From Nanobdellota archaeon (lineage in GTDB: Archaea > Aenigmatarchaeota > Aenigmatarchaeia > QMZP01): 64,000 nucleotides of DNA. The notes under the pieces were generated by a model. That model made no database searches and was not told the origin of the DNA. It saw only the letters and a list, made by a program, of their open reading frames with translations. The stretch lies in NCBI GenBank assembly GCA_043814765.1, contig JBDRJQ010000029.1:16821-80820 (forward strand). The letters are read 5' to 3'. The translations under genes and the position numbers were made by a program. Below, one piece after another: positions 9,918 through 56,499 of the stretch. The stretch's first letter is position 1. Each line of letters opens with the position of its first letter.

Positions 9918-10051
9918 TGGGAGCACAGGGAGTCGAACCCTGATCTACCGGTATCTCTCTGCCGAAGCACATACCAGATTCCAATCATCCTTGGAAAGTC
10001 ATCGCTCCAGTCAAACTGGAGCCGATAATGATGCCATTACACCATGCTCCC
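9918..10051 (-). tRNA. tRNA-Trp (CCA) with a 63-nt intron at the canonical 37/38 site
   Basis: Hand-folded. Acceptor GGGAGCA/TGCTCCC plus A73. Anticodon stem ATCGG/CCGGT with loop CTCCAG-intron-A. T-arm CAGGG-TTCGACT-CCCTG. The intron is about 9953-10015 and its ACTGGAG pairs with the anticodon loop. No CCA is encoded. Confidence 0.8.
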
Positions 10052-10095: not shown

Positions 10096-10251
10096 GCCTC
10101 GTTAGCTCAGTCGGTAATGTGGTTTTTCCAAAAACCGTGTCGGTAGAGAGCGCAGCGTTGGTAAGAAACCTTTTTCATAAAAGGTTTCATCCAAAAGGAG
10201 TTAACACGTCCAAAAACGCTGAGGTCCCGGGTTCAATTCCCGGACGAGGCT
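10096..10251 (+). tRNA. tRNA-Thr (GGU) with two introns (D-loop about 29 nt, anticodon loop about 52 nt)
   Basis: Acceptor GCCTCGT/ACGAGGC plus U73. The D-arm GCTC...GAGC is interrupted by a GGTTTTTCCAAAAACC hairpin flanked by a GTCGGTA direct repeat. Anticodon stem CAGCG/CGCTG with loop TTGGTA-intron-A. T-arm CCGGG-TTCAATT-CCCGG. The mature length would be 75 nt. Confidence 0.8.
10166..10211 (+). repeat. Copy A of the conserved hairpin + CCAAAAGGAG module (inside the tRNA-Thr anticodon-loop intron)
   Basis: Sequence AAACCTTTTTCATAAAAGGTTTCATCCAAAAGGAGTTAACACGTCC. Confidence 0.8.
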
Positions 10252-31690: not shown

Positions 31691-31716
31691 GCTATTCATT
31701 GGTAGATAGTGGTATT

Positions 31717-32508
31717 ATGAAAATTCCTGTGTATGGTTTGGAAGGGAAGGTAACATCTCATATAGATGTTAAAAGATTATTTTCTGAACCTGTGAGGAAG
31801 GATCTGATAAAAAGAGCTGTTTTAGCTGAAAAGTCTATGGAAAGACAGGCATACGGTACAGATCCTATGGCTGGCAAGAGAACTTCTGCGCACTATCATG
31901 GCAGCAGACATTACAAGCATAGTATGATGAATCGCGAGATGGCAAGAATGAAGAGGATTCACGGTTCTGGTTTTTTGAGCATGAGAGCTCGTTTTGTTCC
32001 TCAGGCTGTAAAGGGTAGAAAAGCTCACCCTCCAAAAGCTGAGAAGGTTTGGAAACTGAAAATAAACAAGAAAGAGCATCTGAAAGCTCTAATGTCTGCA
32101 ATAACAGCAAGCTCTGTAAAGGATATTATTGCTGAAAGAGGACACCGAATAGAAGATGTAAAGCATGTTCCCTTAGTATTTGATGATTCCTTTGAGAAAT
32201 TAAAGAAGGTTAAAGAAGTTATAGCAGCATTAGAACACGCAGGTTTAAAGGAAGAGATAGAAAGAGTAAAAGAAAAGAAGATTCGTTCTGGTAAAGGAAC
32301 CATGAGGGGAAGGAAATACAAGAAAAGGAAAGGCCCTATTATAATAGTAAACAATGATGATTTGATAAGCAAGACTGCAAGAAACCTTTCTGGTTTCGAT
32401 GTTGTAGTAGCAAAGAATCTATGTGTTGATTCTCTTGCACCAGGAACAGAACCTGGTCGTTTATGTGTTTGGACAAAATCAGCAATAGAAAGCCTTGATA
32501 AGAGTTAA
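31717..32508 (+). CDS. rpl4: 50S ribosomal protein L4 (uL4)
   Basis: MKIPVYGLEGK N-terminus and SGKGTMRGRKYK block. The start was set at the ATG, although the ORF track begins at an upstream TTG. Confidence 0.9.
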   Translation: MKIPVYGLEGKVTSHIDVKRLFSEPVRKDLIKRAVLAEKSMERQAYGTDPMAGKRTSAHYHGSRHYKHSMMNREMARMKRIHGSGFLSMRARFVPQAVKGRKAHPPKAEKVWKLKINKKEHLKALMSAITASSVKDIIAERGHRIEDVKHVPLVFDDSFEKLKKVKEVIAALEHAGLKEEIERVKEKKIRSGKGTMRGRKYKKRKGPIIIVNNDDLISKTARNLSGFDVVVAKNLCVDSLAPGTEPGRLCVWTKSAIESLDKS

Positions 32509-32576
32509 AAAAGTGCTTTTTCTCTATAAACCTTTTATATATAATTATATTAATTCATCTATTACTATTGATTGAT

Positions 32577-32912
32577 ATGGCTGAAAAGAAGGTTAAAGCA
32601 GTGAAGAAGGAAGTTCCTAAAGAGGAACCTAAAAAAGTTAGTGCTGAAATTACCAATGAATGGGATGTTTTAATATATCCTCATCTAGCAGAAAAATCAA
32701 TGAACATGATAGAACTTGAAAATAAATTAATATTCGTAGTTAAACGCAACGCCAAGAAAAGCCAGATAAAAGAAGCTCTTGAAAAAGGATTTAACATAAA
32801 AGTACTGGAAATAAACACAGAAATAACAAAGAGTGGTGAAAAGAAAGCTTATGCTAAACTGCATCCTGACAGTTCGGCTATTGATATCGCTACCAGGATG
32901 GGAATGATATAA
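32577..32912 (+). CDS. rpl23: 50S ribosomal protein L23 (uL23)
   Basis: LIYPHLAEKSMNMIE..NKLIFVV......K.QIKEALEKGFNIKV is the uL23 pattern. It has a Lys-rich N-terminal extension. Confidence 0.9.
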   Translation: MAEKKVKAVKKEVPKEEPKKVSAEITNEWDVLIYPHLAEKSMNMIELENKLIFVVKRNAKKSQIKEALEKGFNIKVLEINTEITKSGEKKAYAKLHPDSSAIDIATRMGMI

Positions 32913-32940
32913 ACCTTTTGAAAAAAGGTTTAATCCAAAA
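32911..32940 (+). repeat. Copy C of the hairpin module between rpl23 and rpl2
   Basis: In TAAACCTTTTGAAAAAAGGTTTAATCCAAAA the rpl23 stop TAA is part of the hairpin. Confidence 0.6.
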
Positions 32941-32955
32941 CATTATGGTGATAAA

Positions 32956-33624
32956 ATGGGTAAGAGAATAATTGCACAAAGACGTGGAAGAGGTACATCA
33001 ACATACAGGGTACCGGAATATTCGTTTAAACCAAGGATTATATACAAAAACCAAAAAGGCAAGGTTATTGATATTGTTACAGATAGAATACACAATGCTC
33101 CTTTAATTGAAATATTATACGAAGACAAGTCAAAGGGTTACATTGTTGCTCCTGAGGGCATAAAAGTCGGTGATGAAATAAATGACATCGTAAAACCGCT
33201 TTCGAAGATAGAAGAAGGAACTCGGGTATTTGCTATAGAGAGTTATCCAAACTCTGGTCCTAAGTTCTGCAGAACAGCAGGATCATCTGCAGTTGTTGTT
33301 TCAAAGGACAAGAAAAACGTTATAATTGAATTCCCTTCAAAGAAAATCAAAAAACTTAATATTAATTGCAGGGTAACAGTTGGTATACCAGCAGGCGAAG
33401 GCAGAAGAGAAAAGCCTTGGGTCAAGGCCGGTAAGAAATGGATTGCAATGCATAAACGAGGAAAACTATACCCAAGAACTTCAGCAAAGGCAATGAACGC
33501 TGTTGATCATCCTTTCGGTGGTGGTGGAATAGGTAAAGCAAGACCTCCTGTATCAAGAAATGCTCCTCCTGGAAGAAAGGTTGGAACACTGGCTTCGAAG
33601 AGAACGGGTAGGAAAAAGAGGTAA
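32956..33624 (+). CDS. rpl2: 50S ribosomal protein L2 (uL2)
   Basis: [13 protein letters not shown] and HPFGGG...G motifs. Confidence 0.95.
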
Positions 33625-33626
33625 AT

Positions 33627-34007
33627 ATGGCTAAATTCACTTTAAAGGGAAAAAGTATTGAAGAAATTGAAAAAATGAACTTAGAAGAATTTAGAAACTT
33701 ATTGCCTGCTAAGCAGAGAAGATCATTAAAAAGGTCTCTAACTCCTGTTCAGAAAAAGTTTTTAGAGAAAGTAAAGAATGAGCCAAAAAAGTTTCACAAA
33801 ACTCATAACAGAGATCTTATTGTGCTACCAGAATTGGTTGGTAAAAAGATCGGAATTCATACTGGAAAGGAATACGTTACCATTGAGATAAACCCTGAAA
33901 TGCTTGGACACAGACTGGGTGAGTTTGCACCAACAAGAAAAATAGTAAAACATTCTTCGCCTGGTTTCGGTGCAACAAGATCATCCAAGTTCGTTCCATT
34001 AAAGTAG
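33627..34007 (+). CDS. rps19: 30S ribosomal protein S19 (uS19)
   Basis: [31 protein letters not shown] block. Confidence 0.95.
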
Positions 34008-34015
34008 AGGTTATT

Positions 34016-34399
34016 ATGATAAAATACGCTTTAAATCCAAAAGCTTCAAAGTCTGCAAGAGTTTATGGTAGAGCTCTAAGGGTTTCAAGAAAGAGTTCTG
34101 TATTAGTTTGTAAGAAATTGAGCAAAATGAAGCTTGAAAGGGGTAAAAGTTTCCTTAGAAATCTTATAGATGAAAAGGAAAACATTAGCGGTAAACACTA
34201 TACAAACACTGCAAAAGAGTTGTCAAATTTGCTAGCTTCTGCTGAAGCCAACGCAGAGGCAAAGGGTTTAGACTTGAATAAAATTTATATTTCCGCATCT
34301 GCGAACAAGGGTTTCACTTTTTGGAGGCCAAGAAACTGGAAGCAGAGAAGAACCAAGAGAAAAATGTCAAATATACAAATAGTGCTGGAGGAGAAGTAA
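34016..34399 (+). CDS. rpl22: 50S ribosomal protein L22 (uL22)
   Basis: SARVYGRALRVSRKSSVLVCKKL pattern and its position between S19 and S3. Confidence 0.9.
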   Translation: MIKYALNPKASKSARVYGRALRVSRKSSVLVCKKLSKMKLERGKSFLRNLIDEKENISGKHYTNTAKELSNLLASAEANAEAKGLDLNKIYISASANKGFTFWRPRNWKQRRTKRKMSNIQIVLEEK

Positions 34400-35178
34400 T
34401 GTTAAATCAATACTTCATAAAACAGGGAATAAAGGAAGCTGAGATAGAAAAATTTATCAGAAAGGAATTTCCAATGGGAGATTATTCTAAAATAGAGCTT
34501 CAGAGAACGCCTATTGGTATAAAAATTGTGATTCATACTAACAAGCCTGGAAAAATTATAGGTCGTGGAGGATCCAATATAAACGACATAACAGAAGCTG
34601 TAAAGAAGAGGTTTGAACTGGAAAATCCACAAGTTGATGTTAAAATGGTTAAAAATCCTGATTTGGATGCAAAGATAGTTGCAAAACAAATATCATCTGC
34701 ACTTGAAAAGGGATACAATTACAAGAAAATTGGCAATTTAACTATCAAGAGAATAATGGATGCAGGCGCAGTAGGTGCTGAAATATTAATTTCAGGGAGG
34801 ATAAGCGGCAGTAAAGGTATGAAAGGAAGATTTAATCAGGGTTATCTAAAGCACTGCGGATATCCGGCAAAGGAGCTGGTTGATTATGGTTTTGAAGAGG
34901 CTAACACAAGACCCGGAAAGATTGGTGTTAAAGTTAAAATAATGAAGCAATTTATGGATATAACAGGAGAATTAAGAAATAAAGTTGAGCCTGTTCGTGA
35001 ATCTGCTAAAAAAGAAGAAGATTTAATAGAAGAAAAAATGGAAGGTGTTAAGATTTCTAAGAAACCAAGCAAAAAGATTGCTAAAAAATCAGCTAAGAAA
35101 GATGTCAAGAAAAGGCCTTTAGAAAGGGCTGACTCTAAGACGAGTGAAAGAAATAAAAAGACTTCGGTTAAAAAATAA
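34399..35178 (+). CDS. rps3: 30S ribosomal protein S3 (uS3) with a Lys-rich C-terminal tail
   Basis: KH domain (PGKIIGRGGSNI) and GRISGSKGMKGRFNQG. The start ATG overlaps the L22 stop codon (TAATG). Confidence 0.95.
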   Translation: MLNQYFIKQGIKEAEIEKFIRKEFPMGDYSKIELQRTPIGIKIVIHTNKPGKIIGRGGSNINDITEAVKKRFELENPQVDVKMVKNPDLDAKIVAKQISSALEKGYNYKKIGNLTIKRIMDAGAVGAEILISGRISGSKGMKGRFNQGYLKHCGYPAKELVDYGFEEANTRPGKIGVKVKIMKQFMDITGELRNKVEPVRESAKKEEDLIEEKMEGVKISKKPSKKIAKKSAKKDVKKRPLERADSKTSERNKKTSVKK

Positions 35179-35192
35179 TTAAGGATATTAAA

Positions 35193-35411
35193 ATGGTTAT
35201 TTCAAGATCAAAAGATTTAAGGAAAATGAATGAAAAGGATTTAGATAAGCGCTTAAAAGAACTAAACTTAGAGCTATCTAAAGAAAGAGCTAACATAAGC
35301 ATAGGCGCTTCTGTTGTTTCTCCAGGTAAAATACATGAAATAAGAAAAACTATTGCTCGAATTAAAACCATTAAAAAGGAAAAAACGGAGGGTAAAGAAA
35401 CGAATGAGTAA
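35193..35411 (+). CDS. rpl29: 50S ribosomal protein L29 (uL29)
   Basis: 72 aa, with the LRKMNEKDLDKRLKELNLELSKER pattern. Confidence 0.85.
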   Translation: MVISRSKDLRKMNEKDLDKRLKELNLELSKERANISIGASVVSPGKIHEIRKTIARIKTIKKEKTEGKETNE

Positions 35412-35709
35412 GATTTGCGACAAGTGCGGTTTACCCAAAGAGCTCTGTGTATGTGAAACAATAGCAAAGGAAAAGGAAAAAATAAATGTTTCTTCTGTCA
35501 AACGAAGGTTTGGTAAGATAACTACCTTAGTTGAAGGCATAAGCAAAGATGTTGACAATAAAAAAGTACTAAAGGAGCTTAAGGGAAAACTTGCATGTGG
35601 TGGAACATTAAAAGGTAATACAATAGAACTTCAAGGAAATCATAAAGACAAGGTTAAAGGCATCCTTGTTAAGATGGGATTCTCGGCTGACCAGATTGAG
35701 GTTGTATAA
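35404..35709 (+). CDS. sui1: Translation initiation factor SUI1 (aSUI1/eIF1)
   Basis: The pattern CDKCGLPKELCVCE...KRRFGKITTLVEGI...LKELKGKLACGGT is typical of aSUI1. The start ATG lies within the L29 stop region. Confidence 0.9.
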   Translation: MSKICDKCGLPKELCVCETIAKEKEKINVSSVKRRFGKITTLVEGISKDVDNKKVLKELKGKLACGGTLKGNTIELQGNHKDKVKGILVKMGFSADQIEVV

Positions 35710-36133
35710 TCACGAAGGGAAGGTAATCATTGTCGTCATTGATAGTTTTAGTAACGAATATGCCGTCATCCATAGAAATGTTTCCAGAAAGGGACTGGTA
35801 AAAAAAATCTAAAAAGTCAGCTAATTCTTCTTTATCAAAAAACTCATTTTCAAATTCAGTATCAAATAAATACCCAAATATTATGCATTCTTGATCATAA
35901 ATCTGATTATCAGCACTTTTTTGATTTGTTTTTATTTTTCTCAAGTCTTCTACATAAAAATCAGGACAAGCTTTTGTTATAATATAGAAGGGGCTGTTCG
36001 GTATCTCTTCTGGTCTGGCTTCTAAATTAAATTTGATAGGACAATGAAAATAGACTCCCCTGTTAAGATAATCTTGTATTGTTTTTCCATTTCTCCAAAG
36101 ATATATGGGTTCTGATAGAAAAGGGTTCTTCAT
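35669..36133 (-). CDS. Hypothetical protein (154 aa) on the opposite strand inside the r-protein cluster
   Basis: Non-low-complexity acidic ORF in an interval with no plus-strand gene. Its 3' end overlaps the sui1 3' end by 41 nt. No family recognised. Confidence 0.5.
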   Translation of the reverse strand: MKNPFLSEPIYLWRNGKTIQDYLNRGVYFHCPIKFNLEARPEEIPNSPFYIITKACPDFYVEDLRKIKTNQKSADNQIYDQECIIFGYLFDTEFENEFFDKEELADFLDFFYQSLSGNISMDDGIFVTKTINDDNDYLPFVIIQPQSGQPRIPS

Positions 36134-36221
36134 ATGAGATTCTTTGCCATAGTAATCAGAAACTAGTTGGCCTATTAAACCACCTAATTGAATATATAAT
36201 GCACATAGCTAAATATTTAAC

Positions 36222-36500
36222 ATGAATCCGAAGGATATAGTAAAACACGAACTGATTGGTTTACATGTAGAGGTAGTTGATTCCACAGATCCAAGCATGG
36301 TTGGATTAGACGGTCGTGTAATAGATGAGACTAGAAACACTCTAATCATAGAAAAGGAAGACGGCTCTGCAAAAACCATTGTAAAAGAGAACTGTACACT
36401 CAGTTTTGAATATGAAGCTGGTAAAAGAGTCAAAGTTGTGGGTAAATTGCTCGTGGCTAGGTCAGAAGACAGGATAAAGAAAAAACTGAAAAAATGGTAA
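36222..36500 (+). CDS. rnp1: RNase P protein component 1 (Rpp29/Pop4)
   Basis: HELIGLHVEVVDSTDPSMVGLDGRVIDETRNTLII pattern, at the canonical position upstream of S17. Confidence 0.8.
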   Translation: MNPKDIVKHELIGLHVEVVDSTDPSMVGLDGRVIDETRNTLIIEKEDGSAKTIVKENCTLSFEYEAGKRVKVVGKLLVARSEDRIKKKLKKW

Positions 36501-36584
36501 ATGGCTCTGTTTTAGCTTGTTTTTGAAAATGTTTATATATTTATTAATTAATATAGCAACTTATAGTTACTGTAACATGATATT

Positions 36585-36911
36585 ATGAAAAAATCAATAG
36601 GGGTGAGGCTAGAACCTCCAAAGGAAACTTGTAATGATTCGCACTGTGCTTGGCATGGTCAGTTAGCTGTAAGAGGAAAGGTTTTTAGTGGTGTTGTTAA
36701 ATCTGACAAAACTAAAAATACTTCGGTTGTTGAATGGAAATATCACAAAAAAATACAAAAATATGACAGATATGAGAGAAGAAAATCACGAGTAACTGCA
36801 CACAAACCCGATTGCATGAAGGCTAAAGAAGGTGACAGGGTTGTAATAGCTGAATGCAGACCACTTTCAAAGACAAAACATTTCGTCGTGGTTGCTGTTG
36901 TAAAGGAGTAA
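36585..36911 (+). CDS. rps17: 30S ribosomal protein S17 (uS17)
   Basis: GVVKSDKTKNTSVVEW.....KYDRYERR.SRV.AH....AKEGDRVVIAECRPLSKTK pattern. Confidence 0.9.
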   Translation: MKKSIGVRLEPPKETCNDSHCAWHGQLAVRGKVFSGVVKSDKTKNTSVVEWKYHKKIQKYDRYERRKSRVTAHKPDCMKAKEGDRVVIAECRPLSKTKHFVVVAVVKE

Positions 36912-36915
36912 TCAT

Positions 36916-37314
36916 ATGAAAGCGCTGCAAACCAAACCCATAAAGTCGTTGCCTGTGGGCGCACGCCTTAACTGTATCGACAACAGTGGTGCAAAAATTC
37001 TGGAGATAATTGCTGTTCGCGGACACAAGGGCACTAGAAGGAGCAAACCAAAAGCTGGCGTAGCGAATATTGTAATGTGCAAGGTAATAAAAGGTAATGA
37101 GAAGGTAAGACATCAGGTTTTCAAGGCTGTCATAGTGAGACAGAAAAAGGAGTACAAACGACTGAATGGCATGCGAATAAGATTTGAAGATAATGCAGCT
37201 ATTTTGGTTGACGATAAGTTTGAAGCAAAGGGAACTGTTATAAAAGGTCCTGTTGCAAAGGAATCTGTTGAAAGATTTCCTGTAATAGGAAAAATAGCCA
37301 ATATTGTTGTTTAG
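36916..37314 (+). CDS. rpl14: 50S ribosomal protein L14 (uL14)
   Basis: LNCIDNSGAK...IRFEDNAAILV...GTVIKGPVAKE blocks. Confidence 0.95.
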   Translation: MKALQTKPIKSLPVGARLNCIDNSGAKILEIIAVRGHKGTRRSKPKAGVANIVMCKVIKGNEKVRHQVFKAVIVRQKKEYKRLNGMRIRFEDNAAILVDDKFEAKGTVIKGPVAKESVERFPVIGKIANIVV

Positions 37315-37325
37315 ATGGTGATAAA

Positions 37326-37652
37326 ATGGAAAATGTATCATTTGACGAGTGGCAGAAGATGGATGTAAGAGTAGCAAAAATAGAGTCGGCAGAAAGGATT
37401 GAAGGCGCTGATAAACTTCTAAAGCTTGTTGTTAGTTTAGGCAAAGAAAAAAGGGATTTGGTAGCTGGCATAGCAGAATTCTATGCATCTGAAGAGCTTG
37501 TAGGCAAGACAATTCCTATTCTCACAAATCTTGAACCGAAACAGTTCAAGGGCGTAACAAGTCATGGTATGATTCTGGCAATAGAACATAAAGGAAAAGC
37601 TGTTTTAATGTTGCCTGATAAGGATGTTAAAGAAGGAAGTAAAGTAATGTAG
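37326..37652 (+). CDS. Stand-alone tRNA-binding domain protein (Trbp111/CsaA/MetRS C-terminal-like OB fold)
   Basis: The pattern DVRVAKIESAERIEGADKLLKLVVSLG...RDLVAGIAEFY..EELVGKTIPILTNLEPKQFKGVTSHGMILA is typical of the family. Confidence 0.85.
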   Translation: MENVSFDEWQKMDVRVAKIESAERIEGADKLLKLVVSLGKEKRDLVAGIAEFYASEELVGKTIPILTNLEPKQFKGVTSHGMILAIEHKGKAVLMLPDKDVKEGSKVM

Positions 37653-37659
37653 GTGTTAT

Positions 37660-38148
37660 ATGAAAAAAGCATGGTCAACTAGTTGGGTGAGCAGCAAGCA
37701 ACCAAGAAAGCAGAGAAAATATAGATATAATGCTCCTATGCATGTAAGACAAAGCTTTGTTTCTGTTCATCTTTCACCTTCTCTAAGAAGTCAATTCAAA
37801 ACTCGTTCTGTTCCTGCAAGGAAGGGTGACGAATTAAGAATTATGGATGGATCGTTTAAAGGGAAGACAGGAAGTGTTGAAAAAGTCAATCTTAAAAAAT
37901 GTAAAATTTATGTTGATAACATAAAAATCAAAAAAGGAGACGGTTCTGAAGTGATGAAAGCTCTTGAACCGTCAAATCTGATGATAACTAAATTGAACAT
38001 GGATGATAAATTAAGACAAAAATCATTGAATAGGAAACGCCTGAAAGGTAAAAAACCTTTAGAAAAACCTAAAGAAAGTGTTTTAGAAAAACCAGCAAAG
38101 AAAACTGTTAAAAGTGTTGTAAAGCATAAAAAGGATTCTGGCAAGTGA
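37660..38148 (+). CDS. rpl24: 50S ribosomal protein L24 (uL24) with a Lys-rich C-terminal extension
   Basis: KQRKYRYNAPMHVR and the KOW motif RKGDELRIMDGSFKGKTGSV. Confidence 0.9.
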   Translation: MKKAWSTSWVSSKQPRKQRKYRYNAPMHVRQSFVSVHLSPSLRSQFKTRSVPARKGDELRIMDGSFKGKTGSVEKVNLKKCKIYVDNIKIKKGDGSEVMKALEPSNLMITKLNMDDKLRQKSLNRKRLKGKKPLEKPKESVLEKPAKKTVKSVVKHKKDSGK

Positions 38149-38153
38149 TGATT

Positions 38154-38837
38154 ATGGCTCATTTAAAAAGATACTCAATGCCGAACATATGGCCCCTTTC
38201 CGTTAAGGATAAGGTTTGGGTAGGCAAACCTATGCCTGGTACACATAGAAAAGACAAGTGCATAACAATGAGCATACTAGTCAGAAACATTTTAAAATAT
38301 GGAGATAGCGCAAAGGAAACTAAAAAATTAATAGGTGAAGGAAAAATTCTAGTTGATAAGATTCCTAGAAAAGAACCTAATTTCCCTTTAGGTTTTATGG
38401 ATATTATTGAAATTCCTGAGATTAAAGATTATTTCAGGGTTAACATAAATAACAAAGGCTTGGTTTTAGAGAAGATAAATTCTGCTGATTCTGAAAAAAA
38501 GATGTGCATAATTCTAGACAAAACCATAATCAAAGGTGGAAAATGTCAATTAAATCTGCATGATGGAAAAAATCTCATAGTTGATAAACCAAAAACTTAT
38601 AAAACCGGTGACACTGTAATAATAGATTTGACCAGTAAAAAAATAATCAAACACTTCCAGTTGAATAAAAACGCATCAGCTCTAATAATTGATGGTAGAA
38701 ACAGAGGATTAACAGGAAAAATAAAGGAGATAAAGGAAAGAGGAAGTGTACAAGAAAAGGCTAGCATTATCATGAATATTAAGGGGAAGGAAATAGAAAC
38801 TCTTAAAAAATATGTTATGGTTGGTGATTTCGCATGA
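38154..38837 (+). CDS. rps4e: 30S ribosomal protein S4e (eS4)
   Basis: MAHLKRYSMPNIWPL and the KOW-like GRNRGLTGKIKEI. The alternative in-frame starts at 38145 (GTG) and 38148 (ATG) cannot be excluded. Confidence 0.9.
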   Translation: MAHLKRYSMPNIWPLSVKDKVWVGKPMPGTHRKDKCITMSILVRNILKYGDSAKETKKLIGEGKILVDKIPRKEPNFPLGFMDIIEIPEIKDYFRVNINNKGLVLEKINSADSEKKMCIILDKTIIKGGKCQLNLHDGKNLIVDKPKTYKTGDTVIIDLTSKKIIKHFQLNKNASALIIDGRNRGLTGKIKEIKERGSVQEKASIIMNIKGKEIETLKKYVMVGDFA

Positions 38838-39358
38838 AAACAGAAAATCCCATGAAGCAGATAAAAATTGAAAAAATCACTATCAATCGAGGTGTAGGAG
38901 AAGCAGGACCTGGAATAGAGAAAGCACAAAAAATGCTTCAAATGATTACAGGAAACAAGAAAGTTGTTGTAACAAAAACTCATAAAAGAAACACGTTTGG
39001 TGTTGCAAAAGGCAGACCTATAGGAGTAAAGACAACCGTAAGAGGAAAGGATGCAAAAGTTTTGCTGGAAAAACTTCTAGGTGAATCAGAAAAAATGATA
39101 AAACCTTCATCTTTTGACAATCAAGGCAACTTTTCATTCGGAATTCATGAGTACATAAACATACCAGGTGTGAGATACGATCCTGATATAGGTATTCTTG
39201 GCATGGATGTATGTGTTACACTAGAAAGGCCTGGATTTAGAGTTAAAAAACGTAGATTAAAGAATAAAATAGGCAGATCTCATAGAATAACAAAAGAGGA
39301 ATCAATCGAGTTTGCAAAAAAGGAACTCGGTGTTAAACTTATAGAGGATAAGGAATGA
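38834..39358 (+). CDS. rpl5: 50S ribosomal protein L5 (uL5)
   Basis: [21 protein letters not shown] and [24 protein letters not shown] blocks. Confidence 0.95.
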
Positions 39359-39576
39359 GTTACGAAAGAGTTAGAAAACAGATAGAGAATAAGCCTGAAA
39401 AACTGGCTAGATTTGAAAAATTCAATAAAGCCAGGGATAGAAAATTCGGGAAAGGTACGTTTAAATGTAGAAAATGCAATAGACATGGTGGCATAGTCAG
39501 AAAATACGGACTTTTCTACTGCAGACAGTGTTTTAGAGAAGAAGCTGAGAATATTGGCTTCAAAAAATATTCATAG
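39355..39576 (+). CDS. rps14: 30S ribosomal protein S14 (uS14, zinc type)
   Basis: [25 protein letters not shown]. Confidence 0.9.
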
Positions 39577-39586
39577 GTGGATTGAT

Positions 39587-39973
39587 ATGAAACATGATTT
39601 GGTCGCAGACATGTTCTGCAATATAAAGAATGCGGAGAATATAGGTAAGAAAGAATGCCTTACACCTGCCTCTAAAACTATAGAATCTATTCTAGCTATA
39701 ATGAAGAAAGGTAATTATATTGGTGATTTTGAAAGAATAAAGGATGGTAAAGGTGATAGATTTAAAATCAATCTTTTAGGAAAGATAAACAATTGCAATG
39801 TCATAAAACCGAGATTTTCTATTAAAAAAAACGATTTCATAAAATGGGAAAAGAAATTCCTGCCTGCTAACAGCATAGGAATTCTTATTTTAACAACATC
39901 CGCTGGCGTAATGAATCAGAAAGAATCTATGGATGGAAATATTGGCGGCAAACTTTTAGGTTTTGTTTATTGA
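39587..39973 (+). CDS. rps8: 30S ribosomal protein S8 (uS8)
   Basis: DLVADMFCNIKNAENIGKKEC...GILILTTSAGVM pattern. The start was set at the ATG with upstream GGTGG. Confidence 0.9.
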   Translation: MKHDLVADMFCNIKNAENIGKKECLTPASKTIESILAIMKKGNYIGDFERIKDGKGDRFKINLLGKINNCNVIKPRFSIKKNDFIKWEKKFLPANSIGILILTTSAGVMNQKESMDGNIGGKLLGFVY

Positions 39974-39980
39974 GGTTGAC

Positions 39981-40241
39981 ATGAGCGAGAAAGATATCAA
40001 AAATGCAATAAAAGAGAAGAAAATTGAAATTGGCAGCAAAAGCGTGATTAACGGTCTCAAAAACAGCCTTTTGGCAACTGTTTTCTATGCTGACAACTGT
40101 CCAGAAACAGTATTAAATCAATTAAATCATTATTCTAAGGTTTCAAACATAGCAATTAAAAAGTTTAATGGTAATTCAGAAGTGCTCGGTGAGCTATGCG
40201 CAAAACCATTTAATATACTAATGGTCGGCATAAAAAAGTAG
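39981..40241 (+). CDS. rpl30e: 50S ribosomal protein L30e (eL30)
   Basis: GSKSVINGLKNS.....YADNCPE......YSKVSNI.I..F.G.S.VLGELCAKPFNILMVGI pattern. Confidence 0.85.
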   Translation: MSEKDIKNAIKEKKIEIGSKSVINGLKNSLLATVFYADNCPETVLNQLNHYSKVSNIAIKKFNGNSEVLGELCAKPFNILMVGIKK

Positions 40242-40285
40242 AAGACTTAAATAAAATCATGTACAATTAAAACTAGTGGGATACG

Positions 40286-40690
40286 ATGAGTGTTAAACTT
40301 AAAACAGATGATATAAGAACTATTGCAGTTTTTGAAAATATGACAAAGGTTCACGCAAAGGATTGTATTATAACAGACGATTGTGTGTATTTTCTTGTTG
40401 ACCAGAAAAAAATTGGCCTGGCTATAGGTAAGAACGGTGTAATTGTAAGAGAGGTTAGAAATGCTCTCGGAAAGCCAATAAAAATATTTGCTTATTCCAG
40501 TAACCCAAAAGAGCTTATCAGCAACATGATACCCAACATAAAGAATCTTGATTTTAGCGGCGACTCAATGACAATAACAATTCCAGCTGAGGAAAAGATG
40601 GGGGCTATAGGAAAAAACGGAAAAAACATTAAAATTATAAAATCTATCATGGAAAGGCATTTTAACATAAAGAACGTTAAAATAAGATAA
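40286..40690 (+). CDS. nusA: Archaeal NusA-like protein (two KH domains)
   Basis: IGLAIGKNGVIVREVRNALG and MGAIGKNGKNIKIIKSI GxxG KH motifs. It follows L30e, as in the canonical cluster. Confidence 0.85.
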   Translation: MSVKLKTDDIRTIAVFENMTKVHAKDCIITDDCVYFLVDQKKIGLAIGKNGVIVREVRNALGKPIKIFAYSSNPKELISNMIPNIKNLDFSGDSMTITIPAEEKMGAIGKNGKNIKIIKSIMERHFNIKNVKIR

Positions 40691-40770
40691 AACGATTGTA
40701 AGCAAGACATAACTTTATAATTCATAATCTACAATAAAGTTTATAAACTAGAAAGATAATTGAGTTTGTT

Positions 40771-41544
40771 ATGAAAACAAAGATTCTATCCAAGAAAGGA
40801 GATCACTTGAGTTTTTTGCTGGAAGACACTACACCTGCTTTTGCAAACGCTCTTAGAAGAATAATGATTTCTGAAGTGCCAACAATGGCTGTAGAATGGG
40901 TTGATTTTCAAGACAACTCTTCAGCACTATTTGATGAAATAGTAGCGCACAGGTTGGGAATGTTACCTATAAAATTTAATTCAGACAAGTTCAATTTCAC
41001 AGAAGATTGTAAATGCAAGGGTAAGGGATGTCCTCTGTGTCAGGTTGTTTTTTCTGGAAATAAAGAAGGGCCTGGTATTATCTATTCAGGGGATATGAAA
41101 TCATCTAATTCCAGTGTTAAAATAACAGATCCTAATTTTCCTATCGTAGAACTATTGAAAGGTCAAAAAATTAAATTTAATGCTGTTGCACGCTTGGGTA
41201 TAGGTAAAAATCACATAAAGCATCAAGCTGCGAATGCCGCTTACAGATATTATCCTGAAATTGTGGCTGAAGGAAAGGACTGGAAAAAGTTTGTCAGCTC
41301 TTGCCACAGGGATCTAATAAAAGCAGGAACTCAGCCAAAACTCAGCGATCCTGTAAAGTGTAATCTCTGCAGGTCATGTGAGGAAATCAGCAATGGAGAG
41401 CTTCGTATTATAGGCAATGAAAACGCCTTCATATTCAATATTGAATCTGTTTCAGGTCTTACTCCTGCTGATATTGTAATAACCGCATCAAATATACTCG
41501 GTAATAAAACATCTGAATTTAAAAAGCTGGTTGCCAAATTATAA
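40771..41544 (+). CDS. rpoD: DNA-directed RNA polymerase subunit D (Rpo3)
   Basis: TPAFANALRRIMISEVPTMAVEWV and HRLGMLPI blocks. The Cys clusters are CKCKGKGCPLC and CNLCRSC. Confidence 0.9.
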   Translation: MKTKILSKKGDHLSFLLEDTTPAFANALRRIMISEVPTMAVEWVDFQDNSSALFDEIVAHRLGMLPIKFNSDKFNFTEDCKCKGKGCPLCQVVFSGNKEGPGIIYSGDMKSSNSSVKITDPNFPIVELLKGQKIKFNAVARLGIGKNHIKHQAANAAYRYYPEIVAEGKDWKKFVSSCHRDLIKAGTQPKLSDPVKCNLCRSCEEISNGELRIIGNENAFIFNIESVSGLTPADIVITASNILGNKTSEFKKLVAKL

Positions 41545-41560
41545 ATGTTTGGTGTAATTA

Positions 41561-41755
41561 ATGACTTCAAAGGCTATAACTTTTTGGATAATTGGAGCTT
41601 TGTTAATTTTTGCAGGTTCTTGGATAATAGGCAACCTCGAATTAACAGTTGGTGTTGACGTGGGTATTTACACCATAATGGCTGTAGTTTCGTTCCTTTT
41701 TATATTGATGGGCGGAATATGCTGGATATACGTAAGTAAAAGAGATATCAAATAA
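41561..41755 (+). CDS. Small membrane protein (64 aa, 2 TM)
   Basis: Two hydrophobic helices. It lies between rpoD and rps12. No family recognised. Confidence 0.4.
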   Translation: MTSKAITFWIIGALLIFAGSWIIGNLELTVGVDVGIYTIMAVVSFLFILMGGICWIYVSKRDIK

Positions 41756-41824
41756 ACCAACTTATTTATAAATATACTGTTTATATTGTATAGTTATACA
41801 ATCATTTCGAGATGGAGTAATTAC

Positions 41825-42250
41825 ATGCCAGGAGAATTCGCTGCACGAACTTTGAAGAAGAAAAGAAACAAGTTTAGATGGAAGTCTACGCCTCATAAGA
41901 TAAAAAAGATGAAGCTTTGGGCACTCAGGCCAATGAGAGGTGCTCCTCGTGCAAAAGCTATTGTTTTAAAGAAAAAGGGTATTGAGCAAAAACAGCCGCA
42001 CTCTGGTATAATAAAGGCAGTCCGTGTTCAGCTAATAAAAAATGGCATACATGTAACAGCTTTTGTGCCAAAAACAGGTGCCATAAAACACATAGATGAG
42101 CACGATGAAGTTACTATTGAAGGCATAGGCGGTTCTCAGGGCGGTGCAGTTGGTTCTATGCACGGCATTAAATATAAAGTAGTTGCTGTTAATGGTGTCT
42201 CTTTAAATGAGATATTAAAGGGTAAGAAGGAGAAACCAAAGGGTGCTTAA
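41825..42250 (+). CDS. rps12: 30S ribosomal protein S12 (uS12)
   Basis: [19 protein letters not shown]...VTAFVP..G......EHDEV.IEGIGG pattern. The ATG is preceded by GGAG. Confidence 0.95.
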
Positions 42251-42251
42251 T

Positions 42252-42848
42252 ATGACTGATATTCTTTTGTTCAATAAATGGAACTTGACTGATGTAAAAG
42301 TCGAGGATCCAGGACTAGTTAGCTACATAAATTTAAGACCTGTTATTGTTCCAAAATCTAGCGGAAAGTACTCCGCAGGCATGCACAAAAACAAGATGAA
42401 TATTGTTGAGCGCTTCATAAACAGACTGATGGTTCCTGGCCATAGAGGAAAGAAACACAAGATAACTTCTGGTCATTCACCGGCAAGTTACAACGCTATA
42501 TATCTTTCTGTAAAGGATGCTTTTGACATAATAGAGAGAAAAACCAAGAAAAATCCTGTTCAGGTTCTCGTCAGTGCTGTTGAAAATTCAGCTATGATGG
42601 AAGAAGTTGCTTCTTACAGACTTGGTGGAACAATAGCGAGAAAAGCAGTTGTATGTACTCCACAGAGAAGAGTAGATCTTGCTCTAAGATACCTAACACA
42701 AGGCATTTTCAAAGTAACATTCAAGAATAGGAAATCATTTGCGAATGTTATAGCTGATGAATTGATTACCGCATCAAACAACGACAGCAAGAACTTCGCC
42801 ATCTCTGAAAGAAACAGGCTGGAAAAGGAAGCAGAAGGTGCAAGATAG
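42252..42848 (+). CDS. rps7: 30S ribosomal protein S7 (uS7)
   Basis: LLFNKWNL..V.V.DPGL..YI and ERFINRLM...H.GKK blocks, with C-terminal NRLEKEAEGAR. Confidence 0.95.
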   Translation: MTDILLFNKWNLTDVKVEDPGLVSYINLRPVIVPKSSGKYSAGMHKNKMNIVERFINRLMVPGHRGKKHKITSGHSPASYNAIYLSVKDAFDIIERKTKKNPVQVLVSAVENSAMMEEVASYRLGGTIARKAVVCTPQRRVDLALRYLTQGIFKVTFKNRKSFANVIADELITASNNDSKNFAISERNRLEKEAEGAR

Positions 42849-50736: not shown

Positions 50737-51330
50737 ATGAAATTGATATTGGTTAGACATGGCAGAACAGTCGATAATGAAAAAAGAATAATGCAAGGAC
50801 AGATGCAGGGCAAACTATCAGAAGCAGGAAAAGAGCAGGCTAAGAAAGTCGCTCTTCGCTTAAAGAGAGAAAAGATAGATTTTATTTATTCCAGCAATCT
50901 TAAAAGAGCTTCAGACACAGCAAAAGAAATAGCCAAATATCATCCCGATGCACCAATTGAATTTGTAAAAGAACTTAGAGAAAGGCACTGGGGGTCATTG
51001 CAGGGCAAAAGCAAAGATTCAATAGACTGGAACAATATCCCGGATGACGTAGAACCATTGAGTGGTTTAGTAAAAAGAGTGAAATTGTTTCTTGATAAGG
51101 TATATGAAAAGCATTCAGAATCAACTGTTTTATTTGTGTCTCATGGAAGGCTTTTAAAGGCACTTCTTTGCATCATATTTAATAAACCTTTTGATACATT
51201 GAATAAACCTCTAAGTGATGATTCAACAGGAATTGGAAAAATAGACAATGCTTCAGTAACAATTTTCGAGATAGATGAGGATAAAAATCATAAAATACAT
51301 GTATTGAATTGTGTTAAACATTTGGAATGA
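50737..51330 (+). CDS. Histidine phosphatase (phosphoglycerate mutase-like) family protein
   Basis: LVRHGRTVDN catalytic RHG motif, plus the later ERHWG and VSHG motifs. Confidence 0.85.
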   Translation: MKLILVRHGRTVDNEKRIMQGQMQGKLSEAGKEQAKKVALRLKREKIDFIYSSNLKRASDTAKEIAKYHPDAPIEFVKELRERHWGSLQGKSKDSIDWNNIPDDVEPLSGLVKRVKLFLDKVYEKHSESTVLFVSHGRLLKALLCIIFNKPFDTLNKPLSDDSTGIGKIDNASVTIFEIDEDKNHKIHVLNCVKHLE

Positions 51331-51331
51331 T

Positions 51332-51522
51332 GCGGGAGTTTCCGAGCGGCCAAAAATTGATGACTTGGATTGTATTCATCAAGTCATCTTTTGGCTATAG
51401 GAGCAGGGCTAAGGACCCTGTAGCTTAGTGCTTTCGCAGGTTCGAAATAAACCTTTTTCAGAAAAGGTTTAATCCAAAAGAAGGCTGAAGCCTTTCGCGG
51501 AACGAGAATCCTGCCTCCCGCA
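51332..51522 (+). tRNA. Type II tRNA, Leu-like (apparent anticodon AAG), with D-loop and T-loop introns
   Basis: Acceptor GCGGGAG/CTCCCGC plus A73. The D-stem TCC/GGA is interrupted by about 44 nt containing the GATGACTTG/CAAGTCATC hairpin. Anticodon arm CAGGG-CTAAGGA-CCCTG. Long variable arm TAGCTTAGTGCTTTC. The T-arm GCAGG-TTCGAA/T-CCTGC is interrupted by about 62 nt (51447-51508). Confidence 0.75.
51449..51494 (+). repeat. Copy D of the hairpin + CCAAAAG module (inside the tRNA-Leu T-loop intron)
   Basis: Sequence AAACCTTTTTCAGAAAAGGTTTAATCCAAAAGAAGGCTGAAGCCTT. Confidence 0.8.
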
Positions 51523-51528
51523 TTAGAA

Positions 51529-52425
51529 TTAATTTGCTTCCATAACATCCACTGTTGATGTTCCTGTATTAGGATCTGGTGCGCTTATAAATGGACATTC
51601 GTTCTCACAGTCTTCTGATGGACATTCTATGTATTCGTTAGTCTCATAACAATTACAATCTTTTTCACATACTACTGTTGTTTGCGGAACGCAGTTTCCG
51701 TTATTATATGTGTATGATGTTGTAGTTGTGCATGGTATGAATGCTTCATCACATTCGCCCTCTCTGCAGACACGTGCATTACAACCTTCCCAGTCATCAC
51801 AAGCGGGATCTACTGTATTAATGTCTTTACATTCTCCCCGATTGTGTGCCTGTGCCAATGTTATAGGTTCTATACAATTTAACCAAAATCCACTGCCATC
51901 AGGGTTTTCACCTGCTGCAGAACCGCTGTTAGGATCAGGGAGAGGCAAGCATCTCTTGTTCCAGTTTGTGGTTTTTGTTTTAGGGCATTCATTATTACCT
52001 ACTGGTTTCATAGCATCGGTGTCTGGATTTGCGCAATCAGGATCGTCTGCGCACCAGCACATTGTTGTCCCATCAGAAGTTAATTCGCATCCGCCTTTGC
52101 AATAATAATTTTCTGTTTTACCGTTACAGGTAACTGATATCCAGTTATCTGCCACGCATTCGTAAACGCATGGATTTCCAACTGGAGGAATGTCTGGCTC
52201 TATGCATCTATCTCTTCCTTCTACAGTTTTGCACTCATAAATGCATTCTATAGTTGTTATTTCGTTTGTCAGATGTTTGCTGTCTAAACAATACCAATAA
52301 CCACTATTTTCTGCTGACTTTAGTGACCCTATTCCCCACAGCTTTTCTGTTCCAGAAGGCTCTGTAGTACAGCCGCTTACAACAACTAAAAAAATAAATG
52401 ATACTATAATGAAGAAATATCTCAT
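51529..52425 (-). CDS. Cys-rich secreted protein, lipoprotein-like signal (VVSGC)
   Basis: The signal peptide has a lipobox-like VSGC. There are about 40 Cys in 298 aa and no C-terminal TM helix. Confidence 0.75.
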   Translation of the reverse strand: MRYFFIIVSFIFLVVVSGCTTEPSGTEKLWGIGSLKSAENSGYWYCLDSKHLTNEITTIECIYECKTVEGRDRCIEPDIPPVGNPCVYECVADNWISVTCNGKTENYYCKGGCELTSDGTTMCWCADDPDCANPDTDAMKPVGNNECPKTKTTNWNKRCLPLPDPNSGSAAGENPDGSGFWLNCIEPITLAQAHNRGECKDINTVDPACDDWEGCNARVCREGECDEAFIPCTTTTSYTYNNGNCVPQTTVVCEKDCNCYETNEYIECPSEDCENECPFISAPDPNTGTSTVDVMEAN

Positions 52426-56298: not shown

Positions 56299-56499
56299 GC
56301 CGAGGTGGCGGAATGGTTAACGCGCACGACTGGAAGAAACTTTTTTGAAAAAGGTTTCATCAAAAAAGGAGGCTGACGCCTTCCAGAAAAACGGAAATCG
56401 TGTGTCCGAAAGGGCGTGCAGGTTCAAAGCAACCCTTTTCGGTGCGAGACAAACAAAAGGTCTGCACCCCAAAAGGAAGTGAAAATCCTGTCCTCGGCG
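56299..56499 (+). tRNA. tRNA-Ser (GGA) with anticodon-loop and T-loop introns
   Basis: Acceptor GCCGAGG/CCTCGGC plus G73. D-arm GCG-GAATGGTTAA-CGC. Anticodon stem CACGA/TCGTG with loop CTGGAA-intron(56336-56396)-A. Variable arm TGTCCGAAAGGGCGT. The T-arm GCAGG-TTCAAA/T-CCTGT is interrupted by about 57 nt (56429-56485). A T-run follows. Confidence 0.8.
56337..56386 (+). repeat. Copy E of the hairpin + AAAAGGAGG module (inside the tRNA-Ser anticodon-loop intron)
   Basis: Sequence AAACTTTTTTGAAAAAGGTTTCATCAAAAAAGGAGGCTGACGCCTTCCAG. Confidence 0.8.

Follow-up and report, generated by a model that had tools for sequence, protein, structure and literature searches.

A two-intron leucine tRNA gene with the anticodon AAG in an Aenigmatarchaeota genome, a probable replacement of tRNA-Leu(GAG)

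The stretch of archaeal DNA analysed here (64,000 nucleotides, hereafter the window) holds a leucine tRNA gene that has an adenosine in the first anticodon position and is interrupted by two introns outside the anticodon arm. Judged from its sequence, the locus is a real leucine tRNA gene, and the match is far beyond chance because the exons are common to a paralog and to orthologs in many genomes. Comparison among related genomes indicates that it is very probably a functional gene that replaces tRNA-Leu(GAG). We give a probability of about 0.5 to the complete explanation, according to which this two-intron tRNA-Leu(AAG) gene is functional, is the ortholog and the replacement of the GAG gene, and would yield a tRNA whose A34 stays unmodified.

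The genome that carries the locus (G000) is a metagenome-assembled genome (MAG) of 859 kb in 39 contigs, 88% complete and with 37% G+C, and the window lies on its largest contig. Archaeal markers are found near the tRNA (aEF1a, S6e, a histone and a ribosomal protein operon), and the closest relatives of its aEF1a belong to Aenigmatarchaeota MAGs. The host is an ultrasmall DPANN archaeon of the Aenigmatarchaeota.

As read from the sequence, the pre-tRNA-Leu(AAG) gene occupies window positions 51332-51522 on the plus strand (191 nt, two introns), and the locus is organized as follows:

50737..51330, plus strand: upstream CDS of the histidine phosphatase family, with its TGA at 51328-51330, one base before the tRNA
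51290..51297, plus strand: candidate archaeal TATA-like box ATAAAATA, predicted from sequence, 35-42 nt upstream of the mature 5′ end and within the 3′ end of the upstream CDS
51332..51353, plus strand: exon 1, with the 5′ strand of the acceptor stem, U8, the 5′ strand of the D-stem and most of the D-loop; it matches exactly an intronless stretch of the Leu(UAG) paralog (G000:C35:29819)
51354..51398, plus strand: intron 1, 45 nt with a register ambiguity of 1-2 bases inside an A-run, in the D-loop at about 20b/21, with a 9-bp hairpin; neither the paralog nor the G001 and G009 orthologs have it
51399..51446, plus strand: exon 2, with the 3′ strand of the D-stem, G26, the anticodon arm (C32 at 51409, U33 at 51410, A34-A35-G36 at 51411-51413, then G37 and A38), the long variable arm, the 5′ strand of the T-stem and the T-loop to position 59
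51447..51508, plus strand: intron 2, 62 nt, in the T-loop at 59/60, made of a hairpin module that is repeated in other tRNA introns
51509..51522, plus strand: exon 3, with U60, the 3′ strand of the T-stem, the 3′ strand of the acceptor stem and A73, as given by the sequence and by ARAGORN on the spliced form

The spliced product, 84 nt long, belongs to the class II tRNAs and has A73 and the anticodon loop C32-U33-AAG-G37-A38. Its 7-bp acceptor stem is built from GCGGGAG (51332-51338) and CTCCCGC (51515-51521), the leucine identity elements are present as the discriminator A73 at 51522 and a variable region of 15 nt, and the T-stem reads GCAGG/CCTGC; ARAGORN finds the remaining features of a leucine cloverleaf in the spliced form, namely a 3-bp D-stem and a T-arm with the loop UUCGAAU. 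The anticodon arm CAGGG-CTAAGGA-CCCTG (51404-51420) forms a clean 5-bp stem and a 7-nt loop with no interruption. The breaks lie in the D-arm after GGCCAA (45 nt) and in the T-loop after UUCGAA (62 nt), and the gene encodes no CCA. With 51354-51398 and 51447-51508 removed, ARAGORN assigns the 84-mer to tRNA-Leu(aag). On the interrupted gene it called no tRNA, either by default or in intron mode, the latter being unreliable on neighbouring genes (e.g., Phe(aaa) was given for Glu(UUC)), and an Rfam search of 51250-51600 at gathering and permissive thresholds returned noise only, including weak snoRNA-like matches on the minus strand. Standard tRNA finders thus miss the gene, and leucine decoding is therefore mis-annotated in such MAGs. 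In the predicted fold of the 191-nt precursor, which has a free energy of -77.1 kcal/mol (z = -5.6 relative to shuffled sequences), the cloverleaf frame and both intron hairpins are formed.

These results agree with an earlier note on this DNA, which had described a type II tRNA-Leu with A73, an uninterrupted anticodon arm reading AAG, a D-loop intron of about 44 nt with a 9-bp hairpin, a T-loop intron of 62 nt at about position 58-60, and a gene start 1 nt after the preceding stop codon. The leucine identity is borne out by ARAGORN on the spliced form, the check with this program having been suggested in the note itself, and by the Rfam matches of intronless orthologs described below, which also carry the same anticodon loop; the introns were found to measure 45 and 62 nt, the second one being placed between 59 and 60. 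Directly downstream of the tRNA, a convergent ORF of 298 aa (window 51529-52425, minus strand) ends six bases past the tRNA; it has no Pfam match, and its homolog was found at the same place in the same-genus genome only. The content of the interval between the tRNA and the PHP gene differs among relatives, as does its length (0.1-1.9 kb).

Both exon-intron junctions can be drawn as a 4-bp helix between two 3-nt bulges, with weak outer or inner helices, and because of these weak flanking helices they represent relaxed forms of the bulge-helix-bulge (BHB) motif. In intron 1, the central helix is GGCC:GGCU and the bulges are AA/A and AU/A, the hairpin being formed by GAUGACUUG/CAAGUCAUC, while in intron 2 the central helix UUCG:CGAG, with the bulges AA/A and AA/U, is stacked directly on the T-stem. 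The positions of both junctions are fixed independently by the Leu(UAG) paralog of the same genome (G000:C35:29819-29983), because its exons are identical to those of Leu(AAG) except for T34; the paralog has no D-loop intron, and its T-loop intron differs from that of Leu(AAG). Moreover, introns are entirely lacking in the orthologs of G009 and G308, which carry the CTAAGGA loop and score 51 and 50 bits, respectively, with the Rfam tRNA model (RF00005).

Intron 1 is present as a single copy in the genome. The hairpin-plus-tail module of intron 2 (AAACCTTTTT..AAAAGGTTTAATCCAAAAG) occurs at least 19 times in the genome, in full or in part; the 59/60 introns that contain it, with 94-100% identity, include those of Ser(UGA), Ser(CGA), Pro(GGG) and Leu(CAA), besides other tRNAs. 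Apart from window 51447-51508, copies lie at G000:C35:13719-13768, C35:29245-29294, C8:23252-23301, C27:15722-15755 and C28:38835-38868. The genome encodes an EndA of 396 aa that matches the epsilon2 enzyme of ARMAN-2 (PDB 4FZ2) over its full length (E 2.5e-94), as well as RtcB (522 bits), so the machinery for non-canonical introns is present.

A T-loop-anchored scan recovered most of the tRNA genes of the genome, many of them with 1-3 introns. All other family boxes that were resolved carry G34 (Ala GGC, Ser GGA, Pro GGG, Thr GGU, Val GAC, Arg GCG and Gly GCC), and the isoleucine anticodon is GAU. The leucine inventory, which the earlier note had recommended, comprises four genes, AAG, UAG, CAA and UAA; Leu(GAG) and Leu(CAG) were looked for and not found in this 88%-complete genome, and a GAG gene, or a deaminase, could reside in its missing part. 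Ser-type tRNAs carry G73, and the Ser genes of this genome end accordingly in G73. Among other intron-bearing genes, tRNA-Leu(UAA) (G000:C37:1659-1857, minus strand) contains three introns: one of 28 nt at 30/31 with a perfect bulge-helix-bulge, one of 43 nt at 37/38 with a single C-C mismatch in the central helix and an inner helix that a U-to-C change makes stronger in the same-genus ortholog, and one of 44 nt in the T-loop. Within the window, tRNA-Ser(GGA) at 56299-56499 (plus strand) has introns at 37/38 and in the T-loop, G73, and G34 like the other family boxes. An intron-split tRNA at 10096-10251 (plus strand) was read as Thr(GGU) with D-loop and 37/38 introns and reported by ARAGORN in intron mode as Trp(cca), while the one at 9918-10051 (minus strand) looks like Trp(CCA) and was reported as Thr(ggt). 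Two distinct genes were present in the MAG for tRNA-Ser(GCU) (G000:C10:1572-1655 and C35:11638-11721) and for tRNA-His(GUG) (C39:7777-7848 and C37:1274-1414); these could be real duplicates, or could result from a strain mixture or slight contamination, which is estimated at 1.2%.

In regard to the distribution of the gene, BLAST searches against 40 relatives detected Leu(AAG) in the same genus, in the same family and in another family. The anticodon stems of the AAG orthologs vary (CAGGG, CTGGG, CACGG, CTGGC) and the 3′ strands match in each case, thus presenting compensatory changes. The phylum was further scanned, in 371 genomes, with a pattern consisting of the D-arm GGYCAAAGG, position 26, the 5′ stem strand and YTNAGG, which detects only genes with this D-arm and an uninterrupted 5′ anticodon stem, and which missed the gene of the window's own genome. 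Controls with the pattern reversed matched 3 genomes when AAG was scanned for, and in the second scan they had no match. Leu(AAG) was found in 34 of the 371 genomes, belonging to four families of the window's order (f1, f2, f5 and f6) and to one further family (f40), and Leu(GAG) in 41, of which 30 belong to other families and 11 to families that also bear AAG. Not one of the 371 genomes held both. Kinship among the genomes limits any statistics. Where the CAG and UAG genes were also detected, genomes had either AAG+UAG+CAG or GAG+UAG+CAG, and AAG therefore takes the position of GAG in the set. A looser GAG pattern applied to five GC-rich or well-assembled AAG genomes gave only matches whose flanks, inspected by eye, are unable to form an anticodon stem.

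The two anticodons also share one genomic location. Family f1 keeps the gene order S6e-M50-histone-[tRNA-Leu]-PHP-UPPS-aEF1a, and the slot is occupied by GAG in seven genomes (G018, G003, G318, G324, G014, G004 and G332) and by AAG in seven others (G000, G001, G017, G013, G024, G016 and G006), while in family f6 the tRNA gene adjoins M50 both in G305 (GAG) and in G308 (AAG). Since one syntenic slot serves both anticodons, the AAG and GAG genes are positional orthologs. In a tree of the concatenated neighbouring proteins, based on patchy data and with some weak nodes, AAG and GAG states are interspersed, and sister pairs of opposite state are G305 (GAG)/G308 (AAG), with a support of 0.996, and G332 (GAG)/G006 (AAG), with 0.957; parsimony on this tree requires about four changes between AAG and GAG. 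Confinement of AAG to one order and one further family, together with its recurrence there, hints at an enabling factor specific to the clade, possibly a deaminase.

The replacement of the anticodon is accompanied by changes in the loop. At the syntenic locus, the loop is TTGAGGG with GAG and CTAAGGA with AAG, position 38 being G and A, respectively, and in the phylum scan C32 was present in 33 of 34 AAG genes as opposed to 6 of 41 GAG genes. The UAG genes have a C32/A38 loop like AAG, and the CAG genes have U32, with G38 like GAG. One AAG gene, in G314, is found in a loop of the GAG type (TTAAGGG, with U32/G38) and is possibly transitional. In each of the two genomes G000 and G001 (L013 and L015 in the latter), AAG and UAG exons differ at position 34 only. 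Between these two genomes the AAG and UAG genes differ at the same four sites and their introns are unrelated; the shared exon changes alongside differing introns therefore point to concerted evolution of the exons only. The AAG gene could have arisen in two ways: G34 mutated directly to A, after which positions 32 and 38 were retuned, or a copy of the UAG type overwrote the slot and then underwent T34A. The gene of G314 favours the direct G34A transition with later retuning for at least one case.

Two explanations would make the AAG anticodon only apparent. The locus could be an unexpressed or decaying pseudo-tRNA, or A34 could come from a G-to-A error during assembly or binning, as might be supposed for a gene that standard tRNA finders miss in a MAG of 39 contigs. 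However, A34 recurs in 34 other genomes, from independent assemblies and at a syntenic locus, the stems are intact with compensatory changes, there is no GAG gene to do its job, and the gene lies on the largest contig, near the ribosomal protein operon and aEF1a. A pseudogene or a sequencing error was rejected on the independent assemblies, the synteny and the compensatory stems, and we consider this explanation very improbable. The other possibility, that the anticodon is a different one owing to an additional intron or to splice sites displaced within the anticodon loop, draws on the anticodon-arm introns of other leucine genes here and in relatives, such as the Leu(UAA) gene on C37 with its introns at 30/31 and 37/38. 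Against it stand the clean 5-bp stem with its 7-nt loop and the paralog that fixes both junctions, and splicing to GAG or UAG is ruled out by the intronless orthologs with the same loop, leaving this possibility a negligible weight. The earlier note had named precisely splicing to GAG or UAG, and an unexpressed pseudo-tRNA, as outcomes that would speak against it; the intronless orthologs with CTAAGGA contradict the first, and the conserved syntenic locus with its compensatory anticodon-stem changes is not that of a decaying gene.

The functional gene would then be used as follows. The precursor would be transcribed, probably from a promoter within the end of the upstream CDS. The epsilon2-type EndA, which is encoded, would cut both introns at the relaxed BHB motifs, RtcB, likewise encoded, would join the exons, and CCA would be added after transcription. 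Soma and colleagues reportedly described in 1999 that leucine identity in archaea resides in A73 and the long variable arm. Following this identity rule, LeuRS would charge the tRNA through these two elements, independently of the anticodon. Leu(AAG) would read CUU by a Watson-Crick A34:U pair and would also have to cover CUC, with an anticodon loop presumably retuned from U32/G38 to C32/A38. If A34 is unmodified, CUC would be read by relaxed pairing of A34, by the C32-type tRNA-Leu(UAG), or by both.

Whether A34 is modified is a question on which the codon usage and the deaminase searches bear. As the earlier note had advised, CUN usage was inspected, and no avoidance of CUC was found in the genome of the window, where CUC/(CUC+CUU) is 0.22, similar to the G34 boxes. 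The leucine-specific C/U balance showed no significant difference when 16 AAG genomes were compared with 13 GAG genomes (p = 0.30), and GC-rich AAG genomes favour CUC over CUU (505 vs 129 in G308). In the ribosomal and EF genes of the window's genome there was no shift towards CUU, the CUC/CUY ratio being unchanged. In the same group of genes (window 31699-42848 and genome-wide), U-ending codons are favoured beyond the genome average in the G34 boxes of Ser, Pro, Ala and Gly (p 0.001-0.035). Searches of the 88%-complete genome with the PF00383, PF14437 and PF02137 profiles, and with a regular expression for ORFs with the CDA zinc motif, found no deaminase. Among the 40 relatives, the CDA fold had no match in ten AAG-bearing genomes, and the matches obtained elsewhere occur in AAG and GAG genomes alike, without tracking AAG; three deaminases sampled from these matches resemble ComEB/dCMP deaminase and reach 31-37 bits with the TadA model, for which the cut-off is 150.

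It is possible, with somewhat less than even odds, that A34 is converted to inosine by an enzyme unrelated to TadA/ADAT2 or diverged from it beyond recognition, so that Leu(IAG) would read CUU, CUC and CUA as in eukaryotes. The free use of CUC, which outnumbers CUU in GC-rich AAG genomes, the missing preference for CUU in ribosomal and EF genes, and the recurrence of AAG only within one clade, as expected for a clade-specific permissive factor, count in its favour. In addition, to our knowledge archaea make m1I57 by a deaminase that has never been identified, and tRNA adenosine deaminases of this obscure kind therefore appear to exist in archaea. Also, in E. coli the unmodified AAG-G37 tRNA was poor at CUC, reading CUU and CUC at 87:13 (PMC11066159), because of which heavy use of CUC fits inosine better. 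On the other hand, no CDA-fold or ADAR/ADAT1-type deaminase was found in the 88%-complete genome of the window, the ten AAG relatives lack the CDA fold, the matches in others do not track AAG and, in the three sampled, resemble dCMP deaminase, and I34 is reported in no archaeon in the literature searched. Unmodified A34 tRNAs are known to work in four-fold boxes, and in E. coli an AAG tRNA with G37 was no longer edited by TadA (PMC11066159; bioRxiv 10.64898/2026.05.15.725136). We lean narrowly towards an unmodified A34, given that many independent genomes lack the enzyme, while regarding the chances of this reading, which is drawn from genome comparison, as about even. The wider proposition that this Aenigmatarchaeota clade, and by extension other A34-bearing DPANN archaea, makes wobble inosine with a deaminase unrelated to TadA/ADAT is less likely than not. 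If it were true, I34 decoding would have arisen a third time, independently, and in a domain held to be without it; its trace in the genomes would be the repeated switching from G34 to A34 at one locus together with the parallel changes at 32 and 38.

Reviews up to 2026 deny archaea both A34 tRNA genes and wobble inosine, and the near-universal avoidance of unmodified A34 is regarded as a puzzle. The earlier note had likewise held that archaea use G34, U34 and C34 and lack the A34-to-inosine system, in agreement with reviews that describe archaea as without A34 tRNA genes and TadA/ADAT (PMC11066159; bioRxiv 10.64898/2026.05.15.725136); as far as A34 genes are concerned, this does not hold throughout, since an A34 tRNA-Leu had already been reported in DPANN archaea (PMC3239211). 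Three ANN genes are counted among 10,517 archaeal tRNAs (bioRxiv 10.64898/2026.05.15.725136), and the literature search found no papers on A34 in Aenigmatarchaeota. Here, one archaeal clade has repeatedly swapped G34 for A34 in one orthologous leucine tRNA; a deaminase is not recognisable in it, and CUC codons are not avoided. This means either that a C-ending codon in heavy use is read by unmodified A34, which would bear directly on the puzzle of A34 avoidance, or that archaea possess an undiscovered route to inosine.

Among known systems, the introns have their closest counterpart in the multi-intron tRNA genes of ARMAN-2 with their epsilon2 EndA (PMC3239211, PMC3488258), which likewise have D-loop and 59/60 introns with relaxed hBH/HBh′ motifs, and the EndA found here is similarly composed of three units and homologous to 4FZ2. 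Transposed tRNA introns of Thermoproteales resemble the present ones in that intron sequences are common to unrelated tRNA genes. The intron architecture of Leu(AAG) is thus an ordinary example of the known relaxed-BHB kind, with no essential difference.

In regard to the anticodon, tRNA-Leu(AAG) of Lactobacillales (Lactobacillus, Lactococcus, Streptococcus, Leuconostoc and Oenococcus) also replaces GAG in a four-fold box and is kept across genera (bioRxiv 10.64898/2026.05.15.725136), but these bacteria have TadA, and IAG modification is reported in some of them, whereas no TadA homolog was found here. Eukaryotes, with tRNA-Leu(IAG) and ADAT2/ADAT3, share the A34 in the CUN box, the absence of G34 and a separate UAG isoacceptor, yet their system needs a heterodimeric deaminase of the CDA fold, of which none was found here, and inosine in the present case is only hypothetical. 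Unmodified A34 is known from tRNA-Thr(AGU) of Mycoplasma, from tRNA-Arg(ACG) of TadA-less Mollicutes (PMC3711424) and from engineered tRNAs (PMC11066159), likewise in four-fold boxes and in reduced genomes free of the deaminase, and in these systems position 32 and the loop context affect how undiscriminating the reading is. However, the known cases are bacterial or organellar, and their C-ending codons tend to be rare, while several AAG-bearing Aenigmatarchaeota use CUC heavily.

The nearest relative of the present system was described by Fujishima et al. (2011, NAR 39:9695; PMC3239211), who reported A34 tRNA in ultrasmall archaea briefly, in one paragraph. ARMAN-4 and ARMAN-5 are, as here, DPANN archaea with an A34 tRNA-Leu and without the synonymous G34 gene, and they also have a tRNA set rich in non-canonical introns and belong to a lineage with a broad-specificity endonuclease (PMC3239211). 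They differ in being Parvarchaeota, whereas the present gene belongs to Aenigmatarchaeota, and in contrast to them only Leu has switched in the genome studied here, where Pro is GGG. The 2011 paper was without synteny, distribution, loop covariation and a deaminase search (PMC3239211). An A34 leucine tRNA in DPANN archaea is therefore a known, little-studied kind, to which this locus adds a member and, for Aenigmatarchaeota, the orthologous slot, the mutual exclusivity with GAG, the recurrent switching of the anticodon, the covariation of positions 32 and 38, and the codon-usage result.
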